Shown: in pieces, positions 1 through 11,792 of the stretch
How the letters are laid out: each line of letters opens with the position of its first letter
Numbering within the stretch: position 1 is the stretch's first letter
Source: Armatimonadota bacterium
GTDB lineage: Bacteria; Armatimonadota; UBA5829; DTLH01
Assembly (NCBI GenBank): GCA_038207085.1
Contig: JBBRAE010000046.1
Location: 1-19,119 of the forward strand
Direction: 5' to 3'
Length of the DNA stretch: 19,119 nucleotides
Translations under genes and position numbers: made by a program
The notes under the pieces: generated by a model
Seen by the model: the letters and a program-made list of their open reading frames with translations, nothing else
The model's database searches: none
Told to the model about the DNA's origin: nothing

Positions 1-114
1 TATGTAGAAACTACCTTACAACAAAATATAATCAGGCTCTGCGAAAATTATTTGCATCAGATTGAAGGTATTTGCATGCTCGGGGGACTAATCTAAGTGA
101 GGAGGATAACTACA

Positions 115-1563
115 ATGAAAAGGTTATCAGCAATTTTCATAGCGGCCGCATTTGTCGCCGCGCCACTTGGGGCAGTTGAAGGGGTTTCTCAGTCCAAGTC
201 TGTCCAACTGACTGTATATAATGGTAACTTCGCGCTTGTCAAAGACGTGAGGACGATTAATCTTAGGGCTGGAATAAATACGATCGATGTCGAGGATGTC
301 GCAGCACAGATCGACCCTACGAGCGTGCTCTTCAAGTCGCTCACAAGTATAGGTTCTGTCGGCATTCTTGAACAAAATTATCAATATGACCTTATCAGCC
401 CGGACAATATTCTGGACAAGAGCGTCGGGCAGCGCATTACGTTTACACGTTTTGACGAGTCCGGCCAGCCCCACACCGAAAGCGGGATACTGCTTTCGCC
501 GCCCAAGAACGGCGGAATCGTGGTCAAGACCGACGACGGGCGCGTGGTGCTCTACCCGCAGGGGCAGATATCGCTCCTCGGCATGCCCGAAGGTTTGCAT
601 CCCAGGCCGACACTGAGCTGGATGCTTCAGGCTACCCAGGCAGGCCCGCAGGACGCGGTGATCAGCTACATTACAAACGGGATCAACTGGAACGCCGACT
701 ACGTCGCACTCGTTAGCGCCGACGACTCATCCCTCGACCTCACGGGCTGGGTGACCCTGAACAACCAGAGCGGCGCAACCTACAACAACGCCAAACTCAC
801 CCTGATGGCCGGGGACGTGCGCCGCGTAAATAGTTCACCGATGCGCTATGATGGGCGTGCAAGAGACGTGATATTGGAGATGGCCGCAGCTCCTCAGTTC
901 GAAGAGAAAAGCTTCTTCGAGTATCACCTCTACACGATGGAACGACCAACGACCATTCGCCAGAGCGAAACCAAGCAGCTTTCGCTCCTGAACGCAGCGA
1001 ACGTGCCTGTAACCAAAGAGATGATCTACGACGGGCGCGGCGACTGGTGGAGAGGCTGGTGGTATCCGGGCAGGACAAGCTTCGACCCCGGCGGCGGCTA
1101 CGACACATCTAACTATCACAAGGTAAACGTCGTCCTGCAGGTGATGAACTCCAAGCAAAACCGCATGGGTATGCCGCTTCCCAAGGGCAAAATCCGGGTC
1201 TACAAGCTCGACGACACCGGCAGCCAGCAGTTCATCGGGGAAGATATGATCGACCATACCCCCAAGGACGAGAAGATCAGGCTCTACCTCGGAGACGCCT
1301 TCGATGTGGTCGGTGATTACAAGAAAGTGAACTTTAAAAAGATCAGCGACAACGTGATCGAAGAGAGCTTTGAGGTATCGGTCCGCAACCACAAAGACAA
1401 GGCAGTCAATGTGAAGGTGGTCGACCACGTCTGGAGCGACTGGAAGATGACGGTCAAGAGCCATGCGTTCACCAAGAAAGACGCCCACACCATCGAGTTC
1501 CCCGTAAGCGTCCCAGCAAACGGCGAAATCAAGGTGACCTACACCATCAGGACTCAGTGGTAA
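115..1563 (+). CDS. Secreted DUF4139/DUF4140-like protein (TIGR02231-like, MuiA family candidate); start moved to ATG 115 downstream of GAGGAGG RBS
   Basis: Long ORF. Cleavable-looking signal peptide MKRLSAIFIAAAFVAAPLGA. N-terminal block VQLTVYNGNFALVKDVRTINLRAGINTIDVEDV resembles the DUF4140 N-domain. Strong SD GAGGAGG at 98-104, about 10 nt before ATG 115; the ORF track begins at GTG 97 inside the SD. Confidence 0.8.
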   Translation: MKRLSAIFIAAAFVAAPLGAVEGVSQSKSVQLTVYNGNFALVKDVRTINLRAGINTIDVEDVAAQIDPTSVLFKSLTSIGSVGILEQNYQYDLISPDNILDKSVGQRITFTRFDESGQPHTESGILLSPPKNGGIVVKTDDGRVVLYPQGQISLLGMPEGLHPRPTLSWMLQATQAGPQDAVISYITNGINWNADYVALVSADDSSLDLTGWVTLNNQSGATYNNAKLTLMAGDVRRVNSSPMRYDGRARDVILEMAAAPQFEEKSFFEYHLYTMERPTTIRQSETKQLSLLNAANVPVTKEMIYDGRGDWWRGWWYPGRTSFDPGGGYDTSNYHKVNVVLQVMNSKQNRMGMPLPKGKIRVYKLDDTGSQQFIGEDMIDHTPKDEKIRLYLGDAFDVVGDYKKVNFKKISDNVIEESFEVSVRNHKDKAVNVKVVDHVWSDWKMTVKSHAFTKKDAHTIEFPVSVPANGEIKVTYTIRTQW

Positions 1564-1577
1564 ACTGACCAAGCGTT

Positions 1578-1613
1578 GTATCGGGGAGCTCTCTCCCCGA
1601 TACTTTCTTCTCT
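1578..1613 (+). terminator. Rho-independent terminator. Stem gtatcggggag / ctccccgatac (11 bp, 1578-1588 / 1593-1603), loop ctct (1589-1592), then tttcttctct (1604-1613). Lies between convergent genes.
   Basis: Perfect 11-bp inverted repeat followed by a T-rich tract on the + strand. Sits directly after the DUF4139 stop and abuts the stop (1612-1614) of the minus-strand AAA gene. Confidence 0.7.
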
Positions 1614-3171
1614 ACGGAGCGTCGTTTTCGGAGACAGGGGTCCCCGAAATAACATTGAAGATATCCAGGCCCTCGGGCGGGATGCTGCTCGCCATTCGGC
1701 AGCGTCGGACGGCCCAGCGGCGAAGCGCGTTGATCTTCTCGCGCACCGTCATCGAAAGCGGGACCGATGCCCCAGCGCAGGCGGCGAGGTCGTCCTGGGT
1801 GAGATCACCCCCATTCCCAAACGCGGCGTACAGGCCGTCGATCACCACCTGCTCGATCTCCGCGCCGCTGAAACCGACCGTCATCGCCGCAAGCGCGTCA
1901 AGATCAAACGAGCCCGGCTCGCGCCTGCGCTTCTTCAGGTGAATCTCGAATATCTCGCGCCGATCATCGACGGCGGGCAGGTCTACAAAGAAAATCTCGT
2001 CAAAGCGTCCCTTTCGCACGAACTCCGGTGGGATCTGGGAGATGTCGTTTGCGGTCGCGACCACGAACACGGGTGCGGTCTTCTCCTGAAGCCAGGTGAT
2101 AAACGAGCCAAAGACCCGCGCGGTCGTTCCGGCGTCGCTGTAGGCCGAACTCTGCGCACCGGCGAATCCCTTTTCGACCTCATCGACCCAGAGGACGCAC
2201 GGCGCGACCGACTCGGCGATCGATATCGCCCGGCGCACGTTTTCTTCTGATGAGCCGACGATGCCGCTGAATATCTTGCCCGCATCGAGCTTGAGGAGCG
2301 GGAGCCTCCAGAGCGAAGCAATCGCCTTGCAGCAGAGCGACTTGCCGCAGCCCTGCACCCCCATCAGCATCACGCCTTTGGGCTGCGGCAGGCCAAACTC
2401 CCGCGCGCGGGTGGTGAAGGAATTGGTGCGCATCTCAAGCCAGCTTTTGAGCGAATCCATCCCGCCGACATCTGCGAACGCCTCGGTCGCGGGGTAGTAC
2501 TCGAGCATCCCCGACTTTCGGATGATCTGCTCTTTTTCGCTCACGATCACATCAAGATCAAGCTGCCTGCGTTCTACCAGAGACTTGGCAAAAACGTTCT
2601 CCGCCTCACCAGCTGTCAGCCCTTGCGCGGCTTTCACGATCACCTCGCGCTCGTCGGGCGCGATATCGGTCTTCACCTGGGAGTTGTCCCGAAGCGACTC
2701 GATGATTCCCTCAAGGAGCGCGTCAAGTTCGGCGACATCGGGGAGCGGGTAGTCGACGACGGTGATCTCTTTTTCAAGCTCGGAGGGAATCTTCAGCACG
2801 GGGGATAGAATCACCAGAGTCTTGCCGCTGGTCTTGAGCGAAACCGCGAGGTCCCGCAGCCGCCGGGTCACCATCTTGTCTGAGACGAACGCGTGGAGGT
2901 CTTTCAAGACAAAGATCGCGTCGCCCCGAAAGTCCATGACGTAATCGAGCGCGGCAATCGGCTCTTTGGTGGAGTCGTCACGCGTCCTCGCTTCAGAGGC
3001 AACCCCGGAGGTCGCCGTCCAAGTATACATCCGAGTCCCGCGCCCCTGCGCGATCCCTCGAATAGCCTCCTCCACCCGTTCCTCCTCAAAAGAAACGACG
3101 TAGATGATCGGGTAGCGCGCGCGGATCAGGGTTTCTATGGTCGAATTAGCCTTGCTGCTGCCGTTTGGCAA
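1612..3171 (-). CDS. ycf46: Ycf46-like AAA+ ATPase (classic AAA clade: Walker A GVQGCGKS, Walker [41 protein letters not shown]) with ~250-aa N-terminal domain
   Basis: 519-aa ORF. N-terminus [17 protein letters not shown] and C-terminal AAA module match the Ycf46 architecture known from cyanobacteria and plastids. SD-like GGAGA sits 4 nt before the ATG. Confidence 0.85.
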
Positions 3172-3223
3172 TGGTATGCTCTCCTATGCACCTGACCCTA
3201 AAGGATCAGGCTTGCAAAGCATC

Positions 3224-3278
3224 AAGCAAGCTAAAGCAAGCTTGACGGTATATTCCCCCAGCTTGCTTCAGCTTGCTT
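3224..3278. repeat. Long imperfect hairpin: 18-bp arms agcaagctaaagcaagct (3225-3242) / agcttgcttcagcttgct (3260-3277), 1 mismatch, 17-nt loop (3243-3259)
   Basis: Inverted repeat read directly from sequence. Lies in the 325-nt spacer between the flotillin stop and the ycf46 start. Confidence 0.55.
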
Positions 3279-3292
3279 TCTGGTCTCTTAGG

Positions 3293-3429
3293 GCGTGTCT
3301 GAGAAATCCCGATTGTAGTGGCCGGTCGCCGTGCCAGCCATCAGCGCCATAGGCGCTGCCCTACGGCTTTCCGGCTCCTTCGGAGCCGATGGCCATCAGG
3401 CGGACGGCCACTACACTTCTCAGACACGC
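3293..3429. repeat. ~137-bp nested palindromic element. Outer stem gcgtgtctgagaa (3293-3305) / ttctcagacacgc (3417-3429), 13 bp. Second stem tgtagtggccg (3314-3324) / cggccactaca (3405-3415), 11 bp. Encloses small hairpins agcgcc-ata-ggcgct (3343-3357) and cggctcc-ttcg-gagccg (3372-3388, UUCG tetraloop on the + strand).
   Basis: Seen directly in sequence. Candidate structured RNA, attenuator, or MITE-like element with terminal inverted repeats. Confidence 0.5.
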
Positions 3430-3496
3430 ACTTAGCGTGATGCTTTAGCGTCACGTGCGGCCGGTTGGGAGGTGTCTCCCCACCGATCACTTGCTC

Positions 3497-5398
3497 TTAC
3501 TTCTCAGCCTTATTCACAGCGCCGTCATGCACCGGCTCGGCTTTGGGCTTCTCGGTAGACTGCGCCTGGATCACGGGGAGGTTGGATTTCACCATGCCAG
3601 CGATCGTTTCGGCCATCTCCGGGGAGATGTTGATCTCCTTGCCGGTTACTTTCTTCACGACCTGACCGAGCATCGTGGCGAGGTCGTCGACGGTCTGGCT
3701 CGGGGTGCGGTCGCTGTCGCTTCCGAGGACGCTTTTGCCGACGCCGTCGAGGAACGCGCCGATTCCGAGGCCCTGCGAGAGCTTGGTGAGCATGTCGGCC
3801 ATCGTCTCGGGCGTGCCATAGACGGTGTAGTTGCCCTGCTGGGCGAAGTTGCCGACGGCCCCTGCAAGAGCGATCTGGATCTCTTTCTTCGCCTGAATCT
3901 CAAGCTTGGAAACCTCAAACTCGATCGCCGACTTCTCAAACTGCTGCTTGAACTCGGCGGTAGACTTGTCGACCTCCATCTGCTTGCGGGAGACCTCTAC
4001 GCGCTCAGCCTCAACCAGCACAGGAACGAACTGGATCGCCTTCTCGCCTTCAGCTAGTCTAGTCTTAGCCTGAGAATCGGCCTCCGCCATTGTAAGCGTG
4101 GCTTTTGCACGGTTTTCGGCGGCGCGGAGATCGCCTTCGGCTTCCTTCTGCTTCTGGTAAGCGAACGAGTCGGCTTCCCTCTGTTTCCGAACAAGCGCCT
4201 GCTCGGCCTCGTTCTGAGCGCCTATCAGCTTCTGCCTGGCTTCTCGCTCTGCTCCGGAGACGACTTCGACCGTCTTCACGTCCTGGTTCGCCTGCTCCCT
4301 TGCGGCCTCGGCCTCAAGCCGTGCCTGCTCAGCCGCGGCGCGCTCCGCTTCCTTCTGAGCGATGGCGATCTGCTGGTCGCGAGTCGCAACCTCAACCGCC
4401 CGAACCTTGTCTACCTCAGTAGTCTGAATCGACTGCTCGCGGGCGATATCGGCCTGCTTCACCGACTGATCTGCGACGATCTGCGCCTGCTGGGTCTGCC
4501 GTTCCTGCTCGATGCGGTAGACATCGGCCTCGCGCAGCTTTTCGCTCTGAACGCGCGCCACCTGCATGTGCTGCTCGGCCTCGGCAAACGCCTGGTCCTG
4601 CTGCATTGTAAGCACGCTCTTGCGGGTCGAGACGTTCTTCAGCGTAGTCGCCTGCTCAGCTGTTCTCTCAAGTTCGTTTCGGGCGACCAGAGCAGCAGTC
4701 GTAATCTCGGTGATCTTGCGCTTGCCCTGGGCGTCAAATACGTTGTTGTCGTTCAGGTGCGACGGGTCGGTCTGGTCGAGCCTTGAGATCGTCACGGTTT
4801 CAAGTATAAGACCGTTTGGCTCGATTTCCTTTGCGACTTGCTCCTGGACCGAGCTTGCGAAGCTCTCGCGATCGCTGTGCAGCTCGGCAAGCTCATGCTT
4901 TGCCGCAACCGAACGAAGCGCGGAGGTCAGTTTTTCACCGACCTTGTTGTCGATCGCGTCCTCGGTGCCGGACTGGTCGCCAAACGACCTCGCCGCGTTC
5001 AGCACCTGCTCCGGTGTCGCCCCTACCCTCATATAGAACTCTGAGTGAACATCCGCGCGCAAGTAGTCCCGAGTGATAAGCGCATCGGGCCCTTCACGGA
5101 CACATGTGAGCTTGATCACTCTAAGCGATACCCGAGTCATCCTGTGCAAAACCGGCCAGACGACGATACCGCCGTCGATTATCACCTTGCTGCCGCCCGC
5201 ACCTGTGCGGACGAGCGCCTCTTCAGCCGACGCCTTCTGGTAAAGCGTCGTGATGATCAAGAAGATCATTCCAATCGCGGTCGTGATTGCGCCGATTATC
5301 AAGAATACGAACTGTCCGACTGTGCTCATGTCCGGGAAGAACCACGGACCGATCACCATCGCCAGTCCAAGCAGAGTCATTAATGCAAACCCCATCAT
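3497..5398 (-). CDS. Flotillin/SPFH (band 7) family protein, YqiK/FloT-like: N-terminal membrane anchor, SPFH domain, long Glu/Ala/Gln-rich coiled coil
   Basis: MMGFALMTLLGLAMVIGPWFF TM segment, followed by ...YQKASAEEALVRTGAGGSKVIIDGGIVVWPV... (SPFH start), then an extended EA-rich heptad region. Start placed at the ATGATG (5398/5395) after GAAAGGAG. The ORF-track start GTG 5494 adds 32 hydrophilic residues and is judged unlikely. Confidence 0.85.
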   Translation of the reverse strand: MMGFALMTLLGLAMVIGPWFFPDMSTVGQFVFLIIGAITTAIGMIFLIITTLYQKASAEEALVRTGAGGSKVIIDGGIVVWPVLHRMTRVSLRVIKLTCVREGPDALITRDYLRADVHSEFYMRVGATPEQVLNAARSFGDQSGTEDAIDNKVGEKLTSALRSVAAKHELAELHSDRESFASSVQEQVAKEIEPNGLILETVTISRLDQTDPSHLNDNNVFDAQGKRKITEITTAALVARNELERTAEQATTLKNVSTRKSVLTMQQDQAFAEAEQHMQVARVQSEKLREADVYRIEQERQTQQAQIVADQSVKQADIAREQSIQTTEVDKVRAVEVATRDQQIAIAQKEAERAAAEQARLEAEAAREQANQDVKTVEVVSGAEREARQKLIGAQNEAEQALVRKQREADSFAYQKQKEAEGDLRAAENRAKATLTMAEADSQAKTRLAEGEKAIQFVPVLVEAERVEVSRKQMEVDKSTAEFKQQFEKSAIEFEVSKLEIQAKKEIQIALAGAVGNFAQQGNYTVYGTPETMADMLTKLSQGLGIGAFLDGVGKSVLGSDSDRTPSQTVDDLATMLGQVVKKVTGKEINISPEMAETIAGMVKSNLPVIQAQSTEKPKAEPVHDGAVNKAEK

Positions 5399-5505
5399 TT
5401 GCTCCTTTCGAAAATGGCGGTTTGTGCCATTTTGATTCCCGTTGTGGTAAAGACGGCAGTAGCGCGGGCTTTGCGCTGCGAGAATCTTTATCACAACTCC
5501 TTTCG

Positions 5506-6135
5506 TTATAACAGATCACTTTTCCGGACTACAAAGCGCTTCTCGTCTTCGTCGTAATCGATCACCACCACGTCCGTACCCGGTGCGATCACACTTTCCC
5601 CCTCCTGAACTTTCGCCTGGACCCGATGCACGGTGCCGTACTGGTCCCGGACGTTGATGGTGCCGGACTTCTCGGTGGCTTGATACACGGTATGACCGAG
5701 AAGTCCAACGAGTTGGCGGCGCTCGACGCCGAAAGTCTCATCCCTTGGGGTGATCCGCCCGACGATCTCAGCCACGGCGCGAGTCACAGTGAAACTCGCG
5801 ACAAGCGTAATGAGTATCGATGGCAGGATAAGCGCGCTCGGATGGTCGAGAATCCCCATAACACGGTTGATGAGCATACCAATCGAGCCCCATGTAAGCA
5901 TCAGCAAGCCGACGAGCATGGATATAGAAACATCTCCCGCGCCTACAAAGGCAAGAAACCTGCTCATCCCGTGTCCGTCGCCGAGGTCAGCGTCTGAGTC
6001 GGCCCCGTCACCGAGGTCGTCCCCCGAGCTCTCCTGCATCCCACCGACGACGCTTATCAGAATCCAAAGCACCGATACAGCCAGCGGAAGCGTGTATATC
6101 AGGTTCCACCAGTTGAGAAGGTAGTGGTAAGACAT
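5506..6135 (-). CDS. NfeD/YqiJ-like flotillin-associated membrane protein (paralog 1). Asp/Gly-rich acidic insert, C-terminal OB-fold-like beta domain.
   Basis: Layout is TM helix, then DDLGDGADSDADLGDGHG insert, then 2-3 TM helices, then C-terminal GTVHRVQAKVQEGESVIAPGTDVVVIDYDEDEKRFVVRKSDL typical of short NfeD/YqiJ proteins encoded beside flotillins. SD GAGGGGA before the ATG. 9-nt gap to the upstream paralog. Confidence 0.75.
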   Translation of the reverse strand: MSYHYLLNWWNLIYTLPLAVSVLWILISVVGGMQESSGDDLGDGADSDADLGDGHGMSRFLAFVGAGDVSISMLVGLLMLTWGSIGMLINRVMGILDHPSALILPSILITLVASFTVTRAVAEIVGRITPRDETFGVERRQLVGLLGHTVYQATEKSGTINVRDQYGTVHRVQAKVQEGESVIAPGTDVVVIDYDEDEKRFVVRKSDLL

Positions 6136-6144
6136 GTTATCCCC

Positions 6145-6906
6145 TCAAATATCGCTTTTTCGGACGATAAAGCGCTTGTCTTCGTCGTCGTAGTCGACGA
6201 CAATCACCTCAGTCCCGGCGGCGATGCTCTCATTGGCGTCCTCGCTCTTGGCCTGGACGCGGTGGACAGTGCCGGAATGGTCTTTGATATCGATCGTCCC
6301 GGTGGTCTCGCTTACTGTGAAGACGCTTCGTCCAAGCGAGCCGACGAGTTCCAGTAGTGAAACCCCAAAGGTCTCGTCCCGGGGCATAATCCGTCCGACG
6401 ATCTCCGCAATCGCCCGCGTCACCGTCGCACTTACGACAAACGCGACAGCCATCGAAGGCCAGATGAAAAGCGACGGATAGTGAAGCACCCCGAAGAGCT
6501 TGTTGGCAAGCAGACCAAACGACCCCCAGCACAGCAGGAACATTGCGACCATAAGGCTGAGCGGTGCTTCGTCAAGGCCGAGGACCATCATAAACTTGCT
6601 CGCGCCGCTCGACGACTCACCATCGTGATGTTGCGCGTGCCCATCGTGTGAGGCATGTGAGGCGTGCGCATGCGCGCCGTCGTGTGCTACTGAAGTGTGG
6701 GCATGGGCGTGCAATTGGGCGTGGATGCGATCCCCCGCGTGGTGCAGAGCGTGGCTCACGGAGTGTCCCCCACCATGTCCGTGCGCGTGACCCTGCCCGT
6801 GTCCGTGGCCCCCGGCGAGCGCTGTAGAGACAATCCACAGCACCGAGAGCGCAAGCGGAAGCGCGTAGATCAGGTTCCACCATTGCAGCAAATCAGTTAC
6901 CGACAT
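6145..6906 (-). CDS. NfeD/YqiJ-like flotillin-associated membrane protein (paralog 2) with ~70-aa histidine-rich insert
   Basis: N- and C-termini are paralogous to 5506..6135 (MSVTDLLQWWNLIYALPLALSVLW... / ...GTVHRVQAKSEDANESIAAGTEVIVVDYDDEDKRFIVRKSDI). Insert is GHGHGQGHAHGHGGGHSVSHALHHAGDRIHAQLHAHAHTSVAHDGAHAHASHASHDGHAQHHDGESS. Strong SD GGGGAGGA 8 nt before the ATG. Confidence 0.8.
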   Translation of the reverse strand: MSVTDLLQWWNLIYALPLALSVLWIVSTALAGGHGHGQGHAHGHGGGHSVSHALHHAGDRIHAQLHAHAHTSVAHDGAHAHASHASHDGHAQHHDGESSSGASKFMMVLGLDEAPLSLMVAMFLLCWGSFGLLANKLFGVLHYPSLFIWPSMAVAFVVSATVTRAIAEIVGRIMPRDETFGVSLLELVGSLGRSVFTVSETTGTIDIKDHSGTVHRVQAKSEDANESIAAGTEVIVVDYDDEDKRFIVRKSDI

Positions 6907-6950
6907 TTTATTATCCTCCCCTCAGAGGAATGAACCACGTCCGGGCGCAA

Positions 6951-7766
6951 TTACTGCTCGGTTGTCTCACCGGACGACTTGTCTCCGGCGTTTCCCTGCT
7001 GAACCTGCTGCTCTTGCGCGACTTCTTCGGTCGATTCGGCCACGTGGCCGTTTCCGATCTCCGCGGAGAGCTTTTTGAACCGTTTTTCTGTGTCAGATAG
7101 CCCCATCTCGGCCTTTAGCTCGGACAGCGCTTGGTTTGCCCTGGCCTGACGCGCCGCCTGACGCACCTGATGAAGCTTTTGCTCGTCGCCGAGCTGCGCG
7201 ATGTCACCAATCGCCTGACTCTCGGCGTAGGCATGGTCTGCGCGCTCCTCAAGTCGCTCAAGCGCCTTCATGTCCTCGTCTAGCGACGGCGACATGGCGA
7301 ACTTCTGCACCTGTGCGCGCATTGTCGCGAGCTGATAGCGCATCTGAGCGTTTCGAGCGCGATCGGCAGCCTCTTTCAGCTCGTCCTGAAACATCTCGAT
7401 CTGACCTTTGGCCTCGGCGGCGTGCAGCCTTGCAGCCTCAAGCTGGGTTTTCAGGTCGTCGACACGGGCCTGACAGGACTCCATCTGAAGCAAAAGGTTC
7501 CCCGCAAGCTCATCTTCGTTCTGGGTGACAGCCGCGCGGGCGTCGCCGTCAAGCTGCGCGAGTTTCTTCTCCTCCGCCTCAAGCATCCGCTCGATCCTGT
7601 ACTGGTTCGCGATCACCGGGACCGCTGACGTTTTGAGATCGGCGAGCTTCTGCTTCATGCTTTCGATCACATAAGGACCGATGACGGCGGGATTCTCGTA
7701 CTTGATCAGGCCGAAACTGATAGTGGACAGTATTATTCTTTTGACCCTTTGGAGAATATCTCCCAT
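6951..7766 (-). CDS. pspA: PspA/IM30 (Vipp1/LiaH) family membrane-stress protein, bacterial ESCRT-III superfamily
   Basis: 271 aa. N-terminal amphipathic helix MGDILQRVKRIILSTISFGL, then ...IKYENPAVIGPYVIESMKQKLADLKTSAV... aligning to the PspA EDPxKMLxQ region. Continuous coiled coil and an acidic/Gln-rich tail. SD GGGGGTG 6 nt before the ATG. Confidence 0.85.
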   Translation of the reverse strand: MGDILQRVKRIILSTISFGLIKYENPAVIGPYVIESMKQKLADLKTSAVPVIANQYRIERMLEAEEKKLAQLDGDARAAVTQNEDELAGNLLLQMESCQARVDDLKTQLEAARLHAAEAKGQIEMFQDELKEAADRARNAQMRYQLATMRAQVQKFAMSPSLDEDMKALERLEERADHAYAESQAIGDIAQLGDEQKLHQVRQAARQARANQALSELKAEMGLSDTEKRFKKLSAEIGNGHVAESTEEVAQEQQVQQGNAGDKSSGETTEQ

Positions 7767-7787
7767 TGTTCACACCCCCGACCAAGC

Positions 7788-7818
7788 ATATATACAGCCC
7801 AGTGCCTAGTTGCCACAA
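7788..7818 (-). promoter_or_regulatory. Candidate sigma70-type promoter for pspA (minus-strand -10 TATATA at ~7788-7793; weak -35 TTGTGG at 7813-7818; 19-nt spacer). Direct repeats ATTGTGCCA / ATTGTGGCA lie just upstream.
   Basis: Hexamers read on the minus strand. No sigma54 -24/-12 (TGGCAC-N5-TTGCA) match was found despite the PspA context. Confidence 0.3.
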
Positions 7819-7888
7819 TCATAGCATAATACCCATTTTGGCACAATAGTTATTGGTTGGGAGTTTTTGAGCCCGTGAATGATGAAAG

Positions 7889-8680
7889 TTAGTACGTTGG
7901 GTTGGCCATCCGAGCGTTGTACTTGGAGACGTACCAGGGATAGCGGTCGGCGTAAGCGGGGAGTTCGCGTCCTTGATAGCGGGTAGGCGCTGAGGGGGCG
8001 ACGTGCCCATCACAGTAGAGATAGTTGTTCCGCCGGTCGTGCCAGGGAAACTCGGCGTTGGGCATATGTTCGTGCTTCGACCAGCCCCGCACGCATGTCC
8101 AGTCGCCGCATCTGTAGATGTAGTCTCCGGGATAGCTGTAGAAGCTGTCTGGGGTAGCCCCTTCATACAGCAAAATAGTCTTCTTTGGAATCTCGATGAG
8201 CCCCTCCGGGCAGCCAAACAAGTGCCAGGACCCCGAAAGATTTCTCAAGGTAATATTATAGGACTTGTCGTGAAACCCGCCGCCTCTGATATAGGAGTTC
8301 ATGGAATAAGTGCGGGCGGCGTATCTTCCGTCCCACCGATGCAGATCCGGGCAGCACCAGACACTCCCCACCCCACCTTTGCTTCTGACGTATCTCACGA
8401 GCCCCCCGTTGCCGGACTGGTTCCATGCGTTGTAATCGCCGAGCTTACCACCGGGCGAAGGATAAACCCTGTTCCAATCGTCCAAGTACATCTGAAACGC
8501 TATGCCGAGCTGCTTTAGATTCGAAGCACACTTCACAAGATTCGCTTGACGCTTCGAGCTCACGATCACAGGAAAGAGTATCGCGGCAAGAAGCGCAATA
8601 ATACCAATAACCAAAAGCAGCTCGGCAAGCGTAAAGCCTCTGCAACAACATTTCAGACGTACCAAAGCCTCACCCCACAC
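7889..8680 (-). CDS. DUF1559 (H-X9-DG) protein with type IV prepilin-like N-terminal cleavage/methylation domain
   Basis: Prepilin motif RG|FTLAELLLVIGIIALLAAILFPV. C-terminal ...NYLYCDGHV... fits the DUF1559 H-X9-DG family typical of Planctomycetota, Verrucomicrobiota and Armatimonadota. A short leader implies an internal start (GTG 8680 or TTG 8665, after a GGGGTGAGG SD-like stretch) rather than ATG 8737. Confidence 0.7.
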   Translation of the reverse strand: MWGEALVRLKCCCRGFTLAELLLVIGIIALLAAILFPVIVSSKRQANLVKCASNLKQLGIAFQMYLDDWNRVYPSPGGKLGDYNAWNQSGNGGLVRYVRSKGGVGSVWCCPDLHRWDGRYAARTYSMNSYIRGGGFHDKSYNITLRNLSGSWHLFGCPEGLIEIPKKTILLYEGATPDSFYSYPGDYIYRCGDWTCVRGWSKHEHMPNAEFPWHDRRNNYLYCDGHVAPSAPTRYQGRELPAYADRYPWYVSKYNARMANPTY

Positions 8681-8816
8681 ACCGGTGGCGCATAGCGCCA
8701 GCCCTTTCGCAGCCTTTGGCTGCTGTCGGACTGTCATTTTCTGACATCACTGTATTGAGTTTAGCTTCACTATGCCTGCTCGTCAAGCCCTGGCTGTGAA
8801 CAAAGGCAAGTTTCTG

Positions 8817-11715: not shown

Positions 11716-11792
<77 letters not shown>

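Follow-up and report, generated by a model that had tools for sequence, protein, structure and literature searches.

The spacer between the genes of a flotillin-like protein and an AAA+ ATPase in a 19,119-nt stretch of Armatimonadota DNA (hereafter, the window) raises the question of why an intergenic region should be so long and fold back on itself so extensively. The spacer covers positions 3172-3496, and the length of 325 nt given for it in an earlier note was confirmed. That note had left two explanations side by side, a locus-specific structured RNA and a miniature inverted-repeat element (MITE). The analysis described here favors the second for the 137-bp palindromic part of the spacer: most likely, this part is a MITE, presumably mobilized by a transposase of the IS5-family type, and the spacer is a nested insertion of two non-autonomous foldback elements.

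Both genes that border the spacer are located on the minus strand, the gene for the AAA+ ATPase of the SpoVK/Ycf46/Vps4 type at 1612-3171 and the SPFH/Band-7 (flotillin-like) gene at 3497-5494, so that any mRNA crossing the spacer runs from 3496 down to 3172. The TTG start of the ATPase gene at 3171 is the same gene call as in an identical public protein (P0001), and the closest named homologues of the ATPase come from Armatimonadota and Chthonomonadaceae metagenome-assembled genomes (MAGs). An exact-product look-up of the flotillin returned no record, probably because the gene is cut by the Logan contigs. The gene order pspA (PspA_IM30), a protein of 253-273 aa, a YqiJ_N-like protein, SPFH/flotillin and AAA ATPase is found both in the window (the genes preceding flotillin at 5506-7766) and in a relative (L070, 208-5530). 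This order from pspA to the ATPase is kept between the window and relatives with 73% identity, and suggests a membrane-stress module. Elsewhere in the window, a tRNA gene with a CAU anticodon (11719-11792, minus strand, 61 bits) is the only Rfam match at gathering thresholds, and a 19-nt inverted repeat (8503-8521/8609-8627, 89% complementary, with 87 nt between the arms) falls within or on the border of an open reading frame (ORF) at 7889-8737.

The strong self-complementarity reported for the spacer was borne out on both strands. Compared with shuffled sequences, the whole spacer folds at -179.6 kcal/mol (z -11.2) on the minus strand and at -163.8 kcal/mol (z -9.5) on the plus strand; the 141-nt element described below, taken alone, yields a z-score of -9.8 and the hairpin with 19-nt arms one of -7.6, and none of the shuffles equaled the native fold. 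Three arm pairs in the spacer are the top-listed inverted repeats of the 19-kb window, namely, 3224-3242/3260-3278 (19 nt with 18 pairs, previously listed as a hairpin with 18-bp arms), 3293-3305/3417-3429 (13 perfect pairs) and 3314-3324/3405-3415 (11 perfect pairs), the latter two being the outer stems that had been proposed for the 137-bp element. One detail of the original description has to be corrected. A cUUCGg tetraloop had been proposed on the plus strand, and the string CTTCGG is indeed present at 3378-3383, but it is out of register with the stem: a 7-bp stem CGGCTCC/GGAGCCG (3372-3378/3382-3388) closes a 3-nt TTC loop, and ViennaRNA predicts the triloop on both strands. Moreover, with the two neighboring genes encoded on the minus strand, the UUCG reading is antisense to them.

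The stability of the fold, which is extreme and greater by about 16 kcal/mol on the minus strand that would be transcribed (-179.6 vs -163.8 kcal/mol), is an argument for a locus-specific structured RNA, whether an sRNA, an attenuator or an element governing processing or stability, that selection would have favored for separating the expression of flotillin from that of the AAA ATPase; the position between two co-oriented genes of the conserved pspA-flotillin-ATPase cluster speaks for the same reading. The searches for RNA signals point the other way. The covariance-model comparison against Rfam yielded only noise in 3100-3560 even at E<=10 (SmY, MIR169 and RRE at 8-15 bits, with the best score of 14.8 to be set against thresholds of at least 39), and a consensus scan of 3100-3600 detected neither promoter-like nor terminator-like sites. 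None of the stems is followed by a U-tract, as had been noticed before, and the combination of a GC-rich stem and a U-tract that defines an intrinsic terminator is absent from both strands of 3100-3600. The UUCG loop, which does not fit the stem and would be read antisense to both genes, does not help the RNA interpretation either.

The boundaries of the palindromes are more readily understood as those of a mobile element. The 137-bp nested palindrome corresponds to a 141-bp non-coding foldback at 3291-3431, with two small GC hairpins at its center, in which the 13-bp outer stem extends to 15-nt terminal inverted repeats (TIRs). The left TIR (3291-3305, plus strand) reads GGGCGTGTCTGAGAA, and the reverse complement of the right TIR (3417-3431, minus strand) is GTGCGTGTCTGAGAA; the two are identical at 14 of 15 positions, with the consensus G(G/T)GCGTGTCTGAGAA. 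Immediately adjacent to the TIRs are two direct copies of TTA, at 3288-3290 on the left and at 3432-3434 on the right, which were not mentioned in the earlier note and which, as a target-site duplication (TSD), define the limits of the MITE; the original target is C|TTA|G. The element has no coding capacity, given that the only overlapping ORF (3137-3352, plus strand, 71 aa) is a mechanical six-frame call. It combines features by which MITEs are recognized: a non-coding sequence of less than about 300 bp, TIRs, a flush TSD, TIRs that match those of an autonomous insertion sequence (IS), in this case in other organisms, and absence from the corresponding site of relatives.

The same terminus bounds short elements in many other genomes. 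The pattern GTGTCTGAGAA-N95-125-TTCTCAGACAC, which comprises 22 fixed bases and 31 gap lengths, was found at 15 loci in contigs representing one genome per species (596 Gb), compared with about one expected by chance according to our estimate, and at 46 further loci in JGI metagenome contigs. These 61 other public loci are non-coding elements of 120-146 nt bounded by the window terminus GTGTCTGAGAA, and they form families with unrelated interiors, common ends and differing flanks. Several families are multicopy within a single source: MAG CAYYHI01 has five copies, sample Ga0247727 has four that are near-identical, and the Ga01263xx samples have dozens of 133-135 nt. Conservation extends beyond the searched pattern: G occupies position -4 in 95 of 108 element ends, A position -5 in 86 and T position -6 in 75. 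The first G of the left TIR in the window likewise lies 4 nt outside GTGTC, and the three conserved positions translate into a TA or TNA flank, a rule to which the window conforms. Among 54 distinct elements, a TA duplication was observed in 26 (mostly C|TA|G) and a 3-nt duplication (TTA, TAA, TGA, TCA or TAC) in 7, and other copies carry TA, TTA, TAA, TGA or TCA at the same offset as the TTA in the window. A duplication of 2-4 bp, typically TA or TNA, is a mark of the IS427/IS1031 type, and the TTA of the window is of this kind.

Two variations on this theme were observed. The five copies in MAG CAYYHI01 (L006-L009 and L020), which is AT-rich, are 145 nt long and have inverted repeats that continue for about 20 nt past the shared terminus (TGTCATTCCC...CAGT|GTGTCTGAGAA); the real element in this MAG is about 185 nt long and may belong to a different subgroup. 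At another locus (L017, 6536-6700), a 129-nt element is followed at once by another start, TAA|GAGCGTGTCTGAGGAATCC, which resembles the left end in the window, GGGCGTGTCTGAGAAATCC; the sequence beyond runs into an ORF similar to carbon-nitrogen hydrolases, which makes the second copy a solo end.

A likely type of parent for these elements could be recognized as well. One of the public loci (L036, 2177-3103) contains a complete IS of about 930 bp that starts with CTA|GAGGGTGTCTGAGAAG, ends with CTTTCAGATACCCTC|TA and encodes two overlapping transposase ORFs with the Pfam domains DUF4096, DDE_Tnp_1 and DDE_Tnp_1_2 and the NCBIfam model NF033580 (IS5 family transposase). This IS directly adjoins a 135-nt MITE with the same end (2177-3243 for the two together), a single TA being common to both, and its DNA matches annotated IS5-family transposase genes on plasmids. 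Furthermore, an annotated IS5-family IS on a plasmid of Deinococcus sp. NW-56 has the ends AGTGCGTCTGAAAA, close to GTGCGTGTCTGAGAA of the window, with TAA and TTA as flanks. Members of the IS427 group are 832-865 bp long, generate duplications of 2-4 bp and mostly possess two frameshifted ORFs (PMC3281130). The 19-kb window itself contains no transposase genes, and a BLAST search of the spacer against plasmids returned only noise at E=1. Literature searches for the TIR string brought up only unrelated primer sequences, and those for IS5-family MITEs with CTAG produced no match.

The window MITE resembles IS5-derived bacterial MITEs with IS427/IS1031-type ends in being a 141-bp non-coding element, in its 15-nt TIRs matching the end of the IS at L036, in the 3-bp TNA duplication at a CTNAG-like site and in having sister elements that are multicopy in other genomes. 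It also differs from them. Its interior is unique among everything retrieved: global alignment to the 61 pattern loci, which come from collections that do not include the host genome, identified no second copy, the identities of 0.63-0.73 being background. In addition, it is almost fully self-complementary, whereas most of the soil copies are so only at the TIRs. Similar targets are known from eukaryotes, where the PIF/Harbinger superfamily of transposases, which is related to IS5, prefers palindromic targets centered on TTA. The PIF/Harbinger-Tourist MITEs produce 3-bp TTA/TAA duplications (PMC2213677); with their eukaryotic hosts and other TIR sequences, they provide only a mechanistic analogy to the window MITE.

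The target into which this element was inserted appears to be a foldback in its own right. Two 25-nt hairpins resembling repetitive extragenic palindromes (REPs), both absent from the earlier note, flank the palindromic region, the left arm at 3188-3212 (plus strand, GCACCTGACCCTAAAGGATCAGGCT) and the right arm at 3434-3458 (minus strand, reverse complement GCACGTGACGCTAAAGCATCACGCT), the first base of the latter, 3434, being the A of the duplicated TTA. When 3291-3434 is excised in silico, the remaining segments, 3188-3290 and 3435-3458, make up a sequence of 127 nt, here denoted element A, that forms one end-to-end hairpin with a folding energy of -70.4 kcal/mol (z -9.4 as RNA and -6.0 as DNA). 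The 25-nt units are the base of this hairpin. Its tip is the previously noticed palindrome at 3224-3278, in which each of the 19-nt arms (18 pairs) is a 10-nt tandem of AAGCAAGCT, and around the tip the inner part of the element (3213-3290) contributes the lower stem segments 3213-3223 and 3279-3290. The MITE target site, C|TTA|G, belongs to this inner part and falls in the right arm of element A. The two palindromes, which had been described as lying side by side, are accordingly better regarded as nested, the MITE having split a 127-nt foldback whose tip is the hairpin; the insertion of the MITE into element A is well supported.

REPINs are REP doublets that form hairpins and are mobilized by RAYT (Y1 HUH) transposases, and the REPs of Escherichia coli carry a conserved 5' tetranucleotide of the GTAG type. 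Element A has the corresponding layout, with two inverted imperfect palindromes of about 25 nt joined in one hairpin, the lack of a detectable TSD and compensatory changes; it departs from REPINs in that the GTAG-type tetranucleotide is absent and the spacer between the units is a long hairpin of tandem 9-mers. The two 25-nt arms are inverted copies of the motif GCACSTGACSCTAAAGSATCASGCT, identical at 21 of 25 positions, and the four differences amount to two compensatory swaps of C-G to G-C pairs in the local stem, an outcome with an estimated chance probability of a few in 10,000. Such swaps imply that the local hairpins are under some constraint, as in REP sequences. The interpretation of the arms as a long TSD was rejected given that they are inverted rather than direct repeats and differ by compensatory pairs, and a CRISPR-like or tandem-repeat origin was rejected on account of there being only two 10-nt units per arm. 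From the architecture of element A and its absence from relatives, we infer that it, too, may be mobile.

An alternative that retains the MITE holds that only the 141-bp unit is mobile, and that the outer hairpins (3188-3212 and 3434-3458) together with the hairpin with 19-nt arms are native, for example, as protein-binding sites or operators composed of the four AAGCAAGCT 9-mers. These 9-mers are indeed in 10-nt phase and symmetric, as in an operator; the sequence GCCTGACCTAA in a relative (L004) is located at a distance from the start codon similar to that of GCCTGATCCTTTA in the window; and no second copy of element A accompanies the missing TSD. Specifically, the search for the hairpin arm AAGCAAGCTNAAGCAAGCT and the REP-like motif gave zero matches in viral contigs, a fuzzy search for both across all fetched loci recovered the window only, and the REP-like pair is the only one within the 19 kb. 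On the other side, the spacers of the relatives lack all these parts, the end-to-end pairing of 127 nt after removal of the MITE is unusual for native spacers here, and the compensatory changes preserve the hairpin in either 25-nt arm, as is seen in REP sequences. A contig of a near-identical strain (L002) also halts 30-32 nt into the element, the behavior anticipated when a k=31 graph runs into a repeat. On balance, native outer hairpins appear unlikely, and the nested insertion of two foldback elements is preferred. Comparably doubtful, and going well beyond this preferred reading, is the idea that element A is the first recognized member of an undescribed REPIN-like family in Armatimonadota, the nested pair having been recruited to insulate flotillin from the AAA ATPase or to serve for RNase III processing between them.

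Removal of both elements leaves a native spacer of about 54 nt, which fits the other spacers of the window. It consists of the ATPase leader (3172-3187, minus strand), with the ribosome-binding site GGAGAG at 3179-3184 upstream of the TTG at 3171 and the sequence GAGAGCATAC conserved in L004, and of a further, previously unreported hairpin just past the flotillin stop codon (3459-3490, minus strand, CGGTGGGGAG-ACAC-CTCCCAACCG), which is outside both insertions. A hairpin after flotillin is present in relatives as well, an observation that might be taken in favor of a regulatory RNA: a counterpart of 3459-3490 follows 'tgatcGG' past the flotillin stop codon in L073, and hairpins occupy the equivalent position in L004 and L067. 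The spacer shared by L004 and L005 includes a classic terminator, which in L004 is at the window-equivalent position.

Comparison of the flotillin-ATPase junctions themselves bears directly on the RNA interpretation. In four related genomes, the spacers are 96 nt (L004 and L005, 79% ATPase identity), 126 nt (L067, 77%) and 104 nt (L070 and L072, 73%) long and mutually unalignable, and contain neither MITE nor element A sequences, at a distance of only 73-79% identity in the ATPase. With spacers that cannot be aligned, covariation offers no way to test for a conserved RNA, and there is nothing conserved to explain. The search for a near-identical strain with an empty site through the flotillin C-terminus retrieved only relatives with 76% and 57% identity, the former with the native post-stop hairpin and a different downstream gene, and the relevant flanks are absent from another ATPase relative (P0004). 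Considering that the orthologous spacers of 96-126 nt lack these elements, that the long stems of the window coincide exactly with the TIRs and the TSD, and that Rfam matches, promoter-like signals and terminator-like signals are missing, a selected, locus-specific RNA is very unlikely, and this reading of the spacer is unsupported. Of the two alternatives originally offered, the miniature inverted-repeat element therefore stands for the 137-bp part, with its TIRs, TTA repeats and shared terminus, and the locus-specific RNA does not.

The spacer of L067 (1100-1225) has its own unrelated 18-bp perfect hairpin (GGTAGATACCTCCAGGAA...TTCCTGGAGGTATCTACC), accompanied by tandem repeats of GGGAATAGG and by an incomplete duplicate of its loop region; the flotillin-ATPase junction seems to acquire long hairpins repeatedly.

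Foldback structures in metagenomic contigs also call for a check on the assembly. A chimeric or fold-back join might account for the structure, and the Logan assembly of SRR19962012 does not cross 3220-3859. Its contigs L002 and L001, from a near-identical strain, nevertheless match window positions 1-3219 and 3860-8711 with one mismatch each, such that both flanks are confirmed independently, and L002 contains the first 32 nt of element A before it halts, at a point where a repeat would be expected to break a k=31 graph. Assembly errors would not produce clean ends with TIRs and a TSD such as the 61 other loci also show, and an artefact is extremely improbable. The Logan assembly also breaks inside the flotillin gene, and the other end of L002 coincides with base 1 of the window, where both assemblies break.

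Some hints of further copies come from the contig ends of relatives. Three independent Logan contigs of the relative with 77% identity (L067, 2890-2912; L068, 2115-2137; L069, 2034-2056) all end in GATGGCCGGCACGGCGACCGGCC, which is identical at 22 of 23 positions to the inner arm of the window MITE (3320-3342, minus strand), and is located about 115 nt downstream of the ATPase stop codon; a small GC hairpin, GTGTCCGACGGACAC, precedes it. This stretch probably belongs to a related element that is multicopy and sits at another site. Together, the stop of L002 and the shared 23-nt ends in the relatives hint weakly at a multicopy status in the lineage.

The following course of events would account for the locus. 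A short native spacer of about 54 nt would have grown through the insertion of two non-autonomous foldback elements, one after the other. The first insertion would have placed the 127-nt element A between the hairpin that follows flotillin and the ribosome-binding site of the ATPase gene; in the second, the 141-bp MITE would have entered the right arm of element A at C|TTA|G, with duplication of TTA. The MITE would owe its mobility to a trans-acting DDE transposase, an IS5-family enzyme of the IS427/IS1031 type that presumably recognizes G-N-G-N-GTGTCTGAGAA and cuts at CT(N)AG. The self-complementarity of the spacer would then stem from the architecture of the elements, that is, TIRs for transposase binding and an interior inverted duplication, rather than from selection for a regulatory RNA.

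If transcription on the minus strand runs from flotillin through the spacer into the ATPase gene, duplexes of about 20-25 bp would form in the mRNA. Precedents exist in Correia elements, in which RNase III cleaves the hairpins at the TIRs, and in ERIC, which alters transcript levels (PMC10969869). Like the window MITE, Correia elements of Neisseria and the ERIC/IRU elements of enterobacteria are TIR elements, of 100-155 bp, at TA-containing intergenic sites, and they are co-transcribed with neighboring genes into long hairpins; unlike the window MITE, they come from another phylum (the window being Armatimonadota-like), depend on another transposase family and share no sequence similarity with the window. 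By analogy with these elements, one might speculate that the 13+11-bp and 19-bp duplexes lead to RNase III cuts or to altered stability of the transcript halves.

The oversized, hyper-structured spacer is thus explained without a new RNA, most likely by the nested insertion of an ordinary kind of genomic parasite rather than by a dedicated regulatory RNA. The nesting also tells which of the two insertions at this site came first. For genome-wide searches, the locus calls for caution, as z-scores of -10 can stem from transposon architecture alone. The terminus G-N-G-N-GTGTCTGAGAA with TA/TNA duplications characterizes a group of short non-autonomous IS5-type elements, found in MAGs labelled Eisenbacteria, Chloroflexota, Lachnospiraceae, Chlamydiae and Saprospiraceae as well as in soil metagenomes, and could serve as a masking criterion for them in searches for non-coding RNAs. 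For the host, the hairpins, if transcribed, would be candidate RNase III substrates in a membrane-stress cluster.
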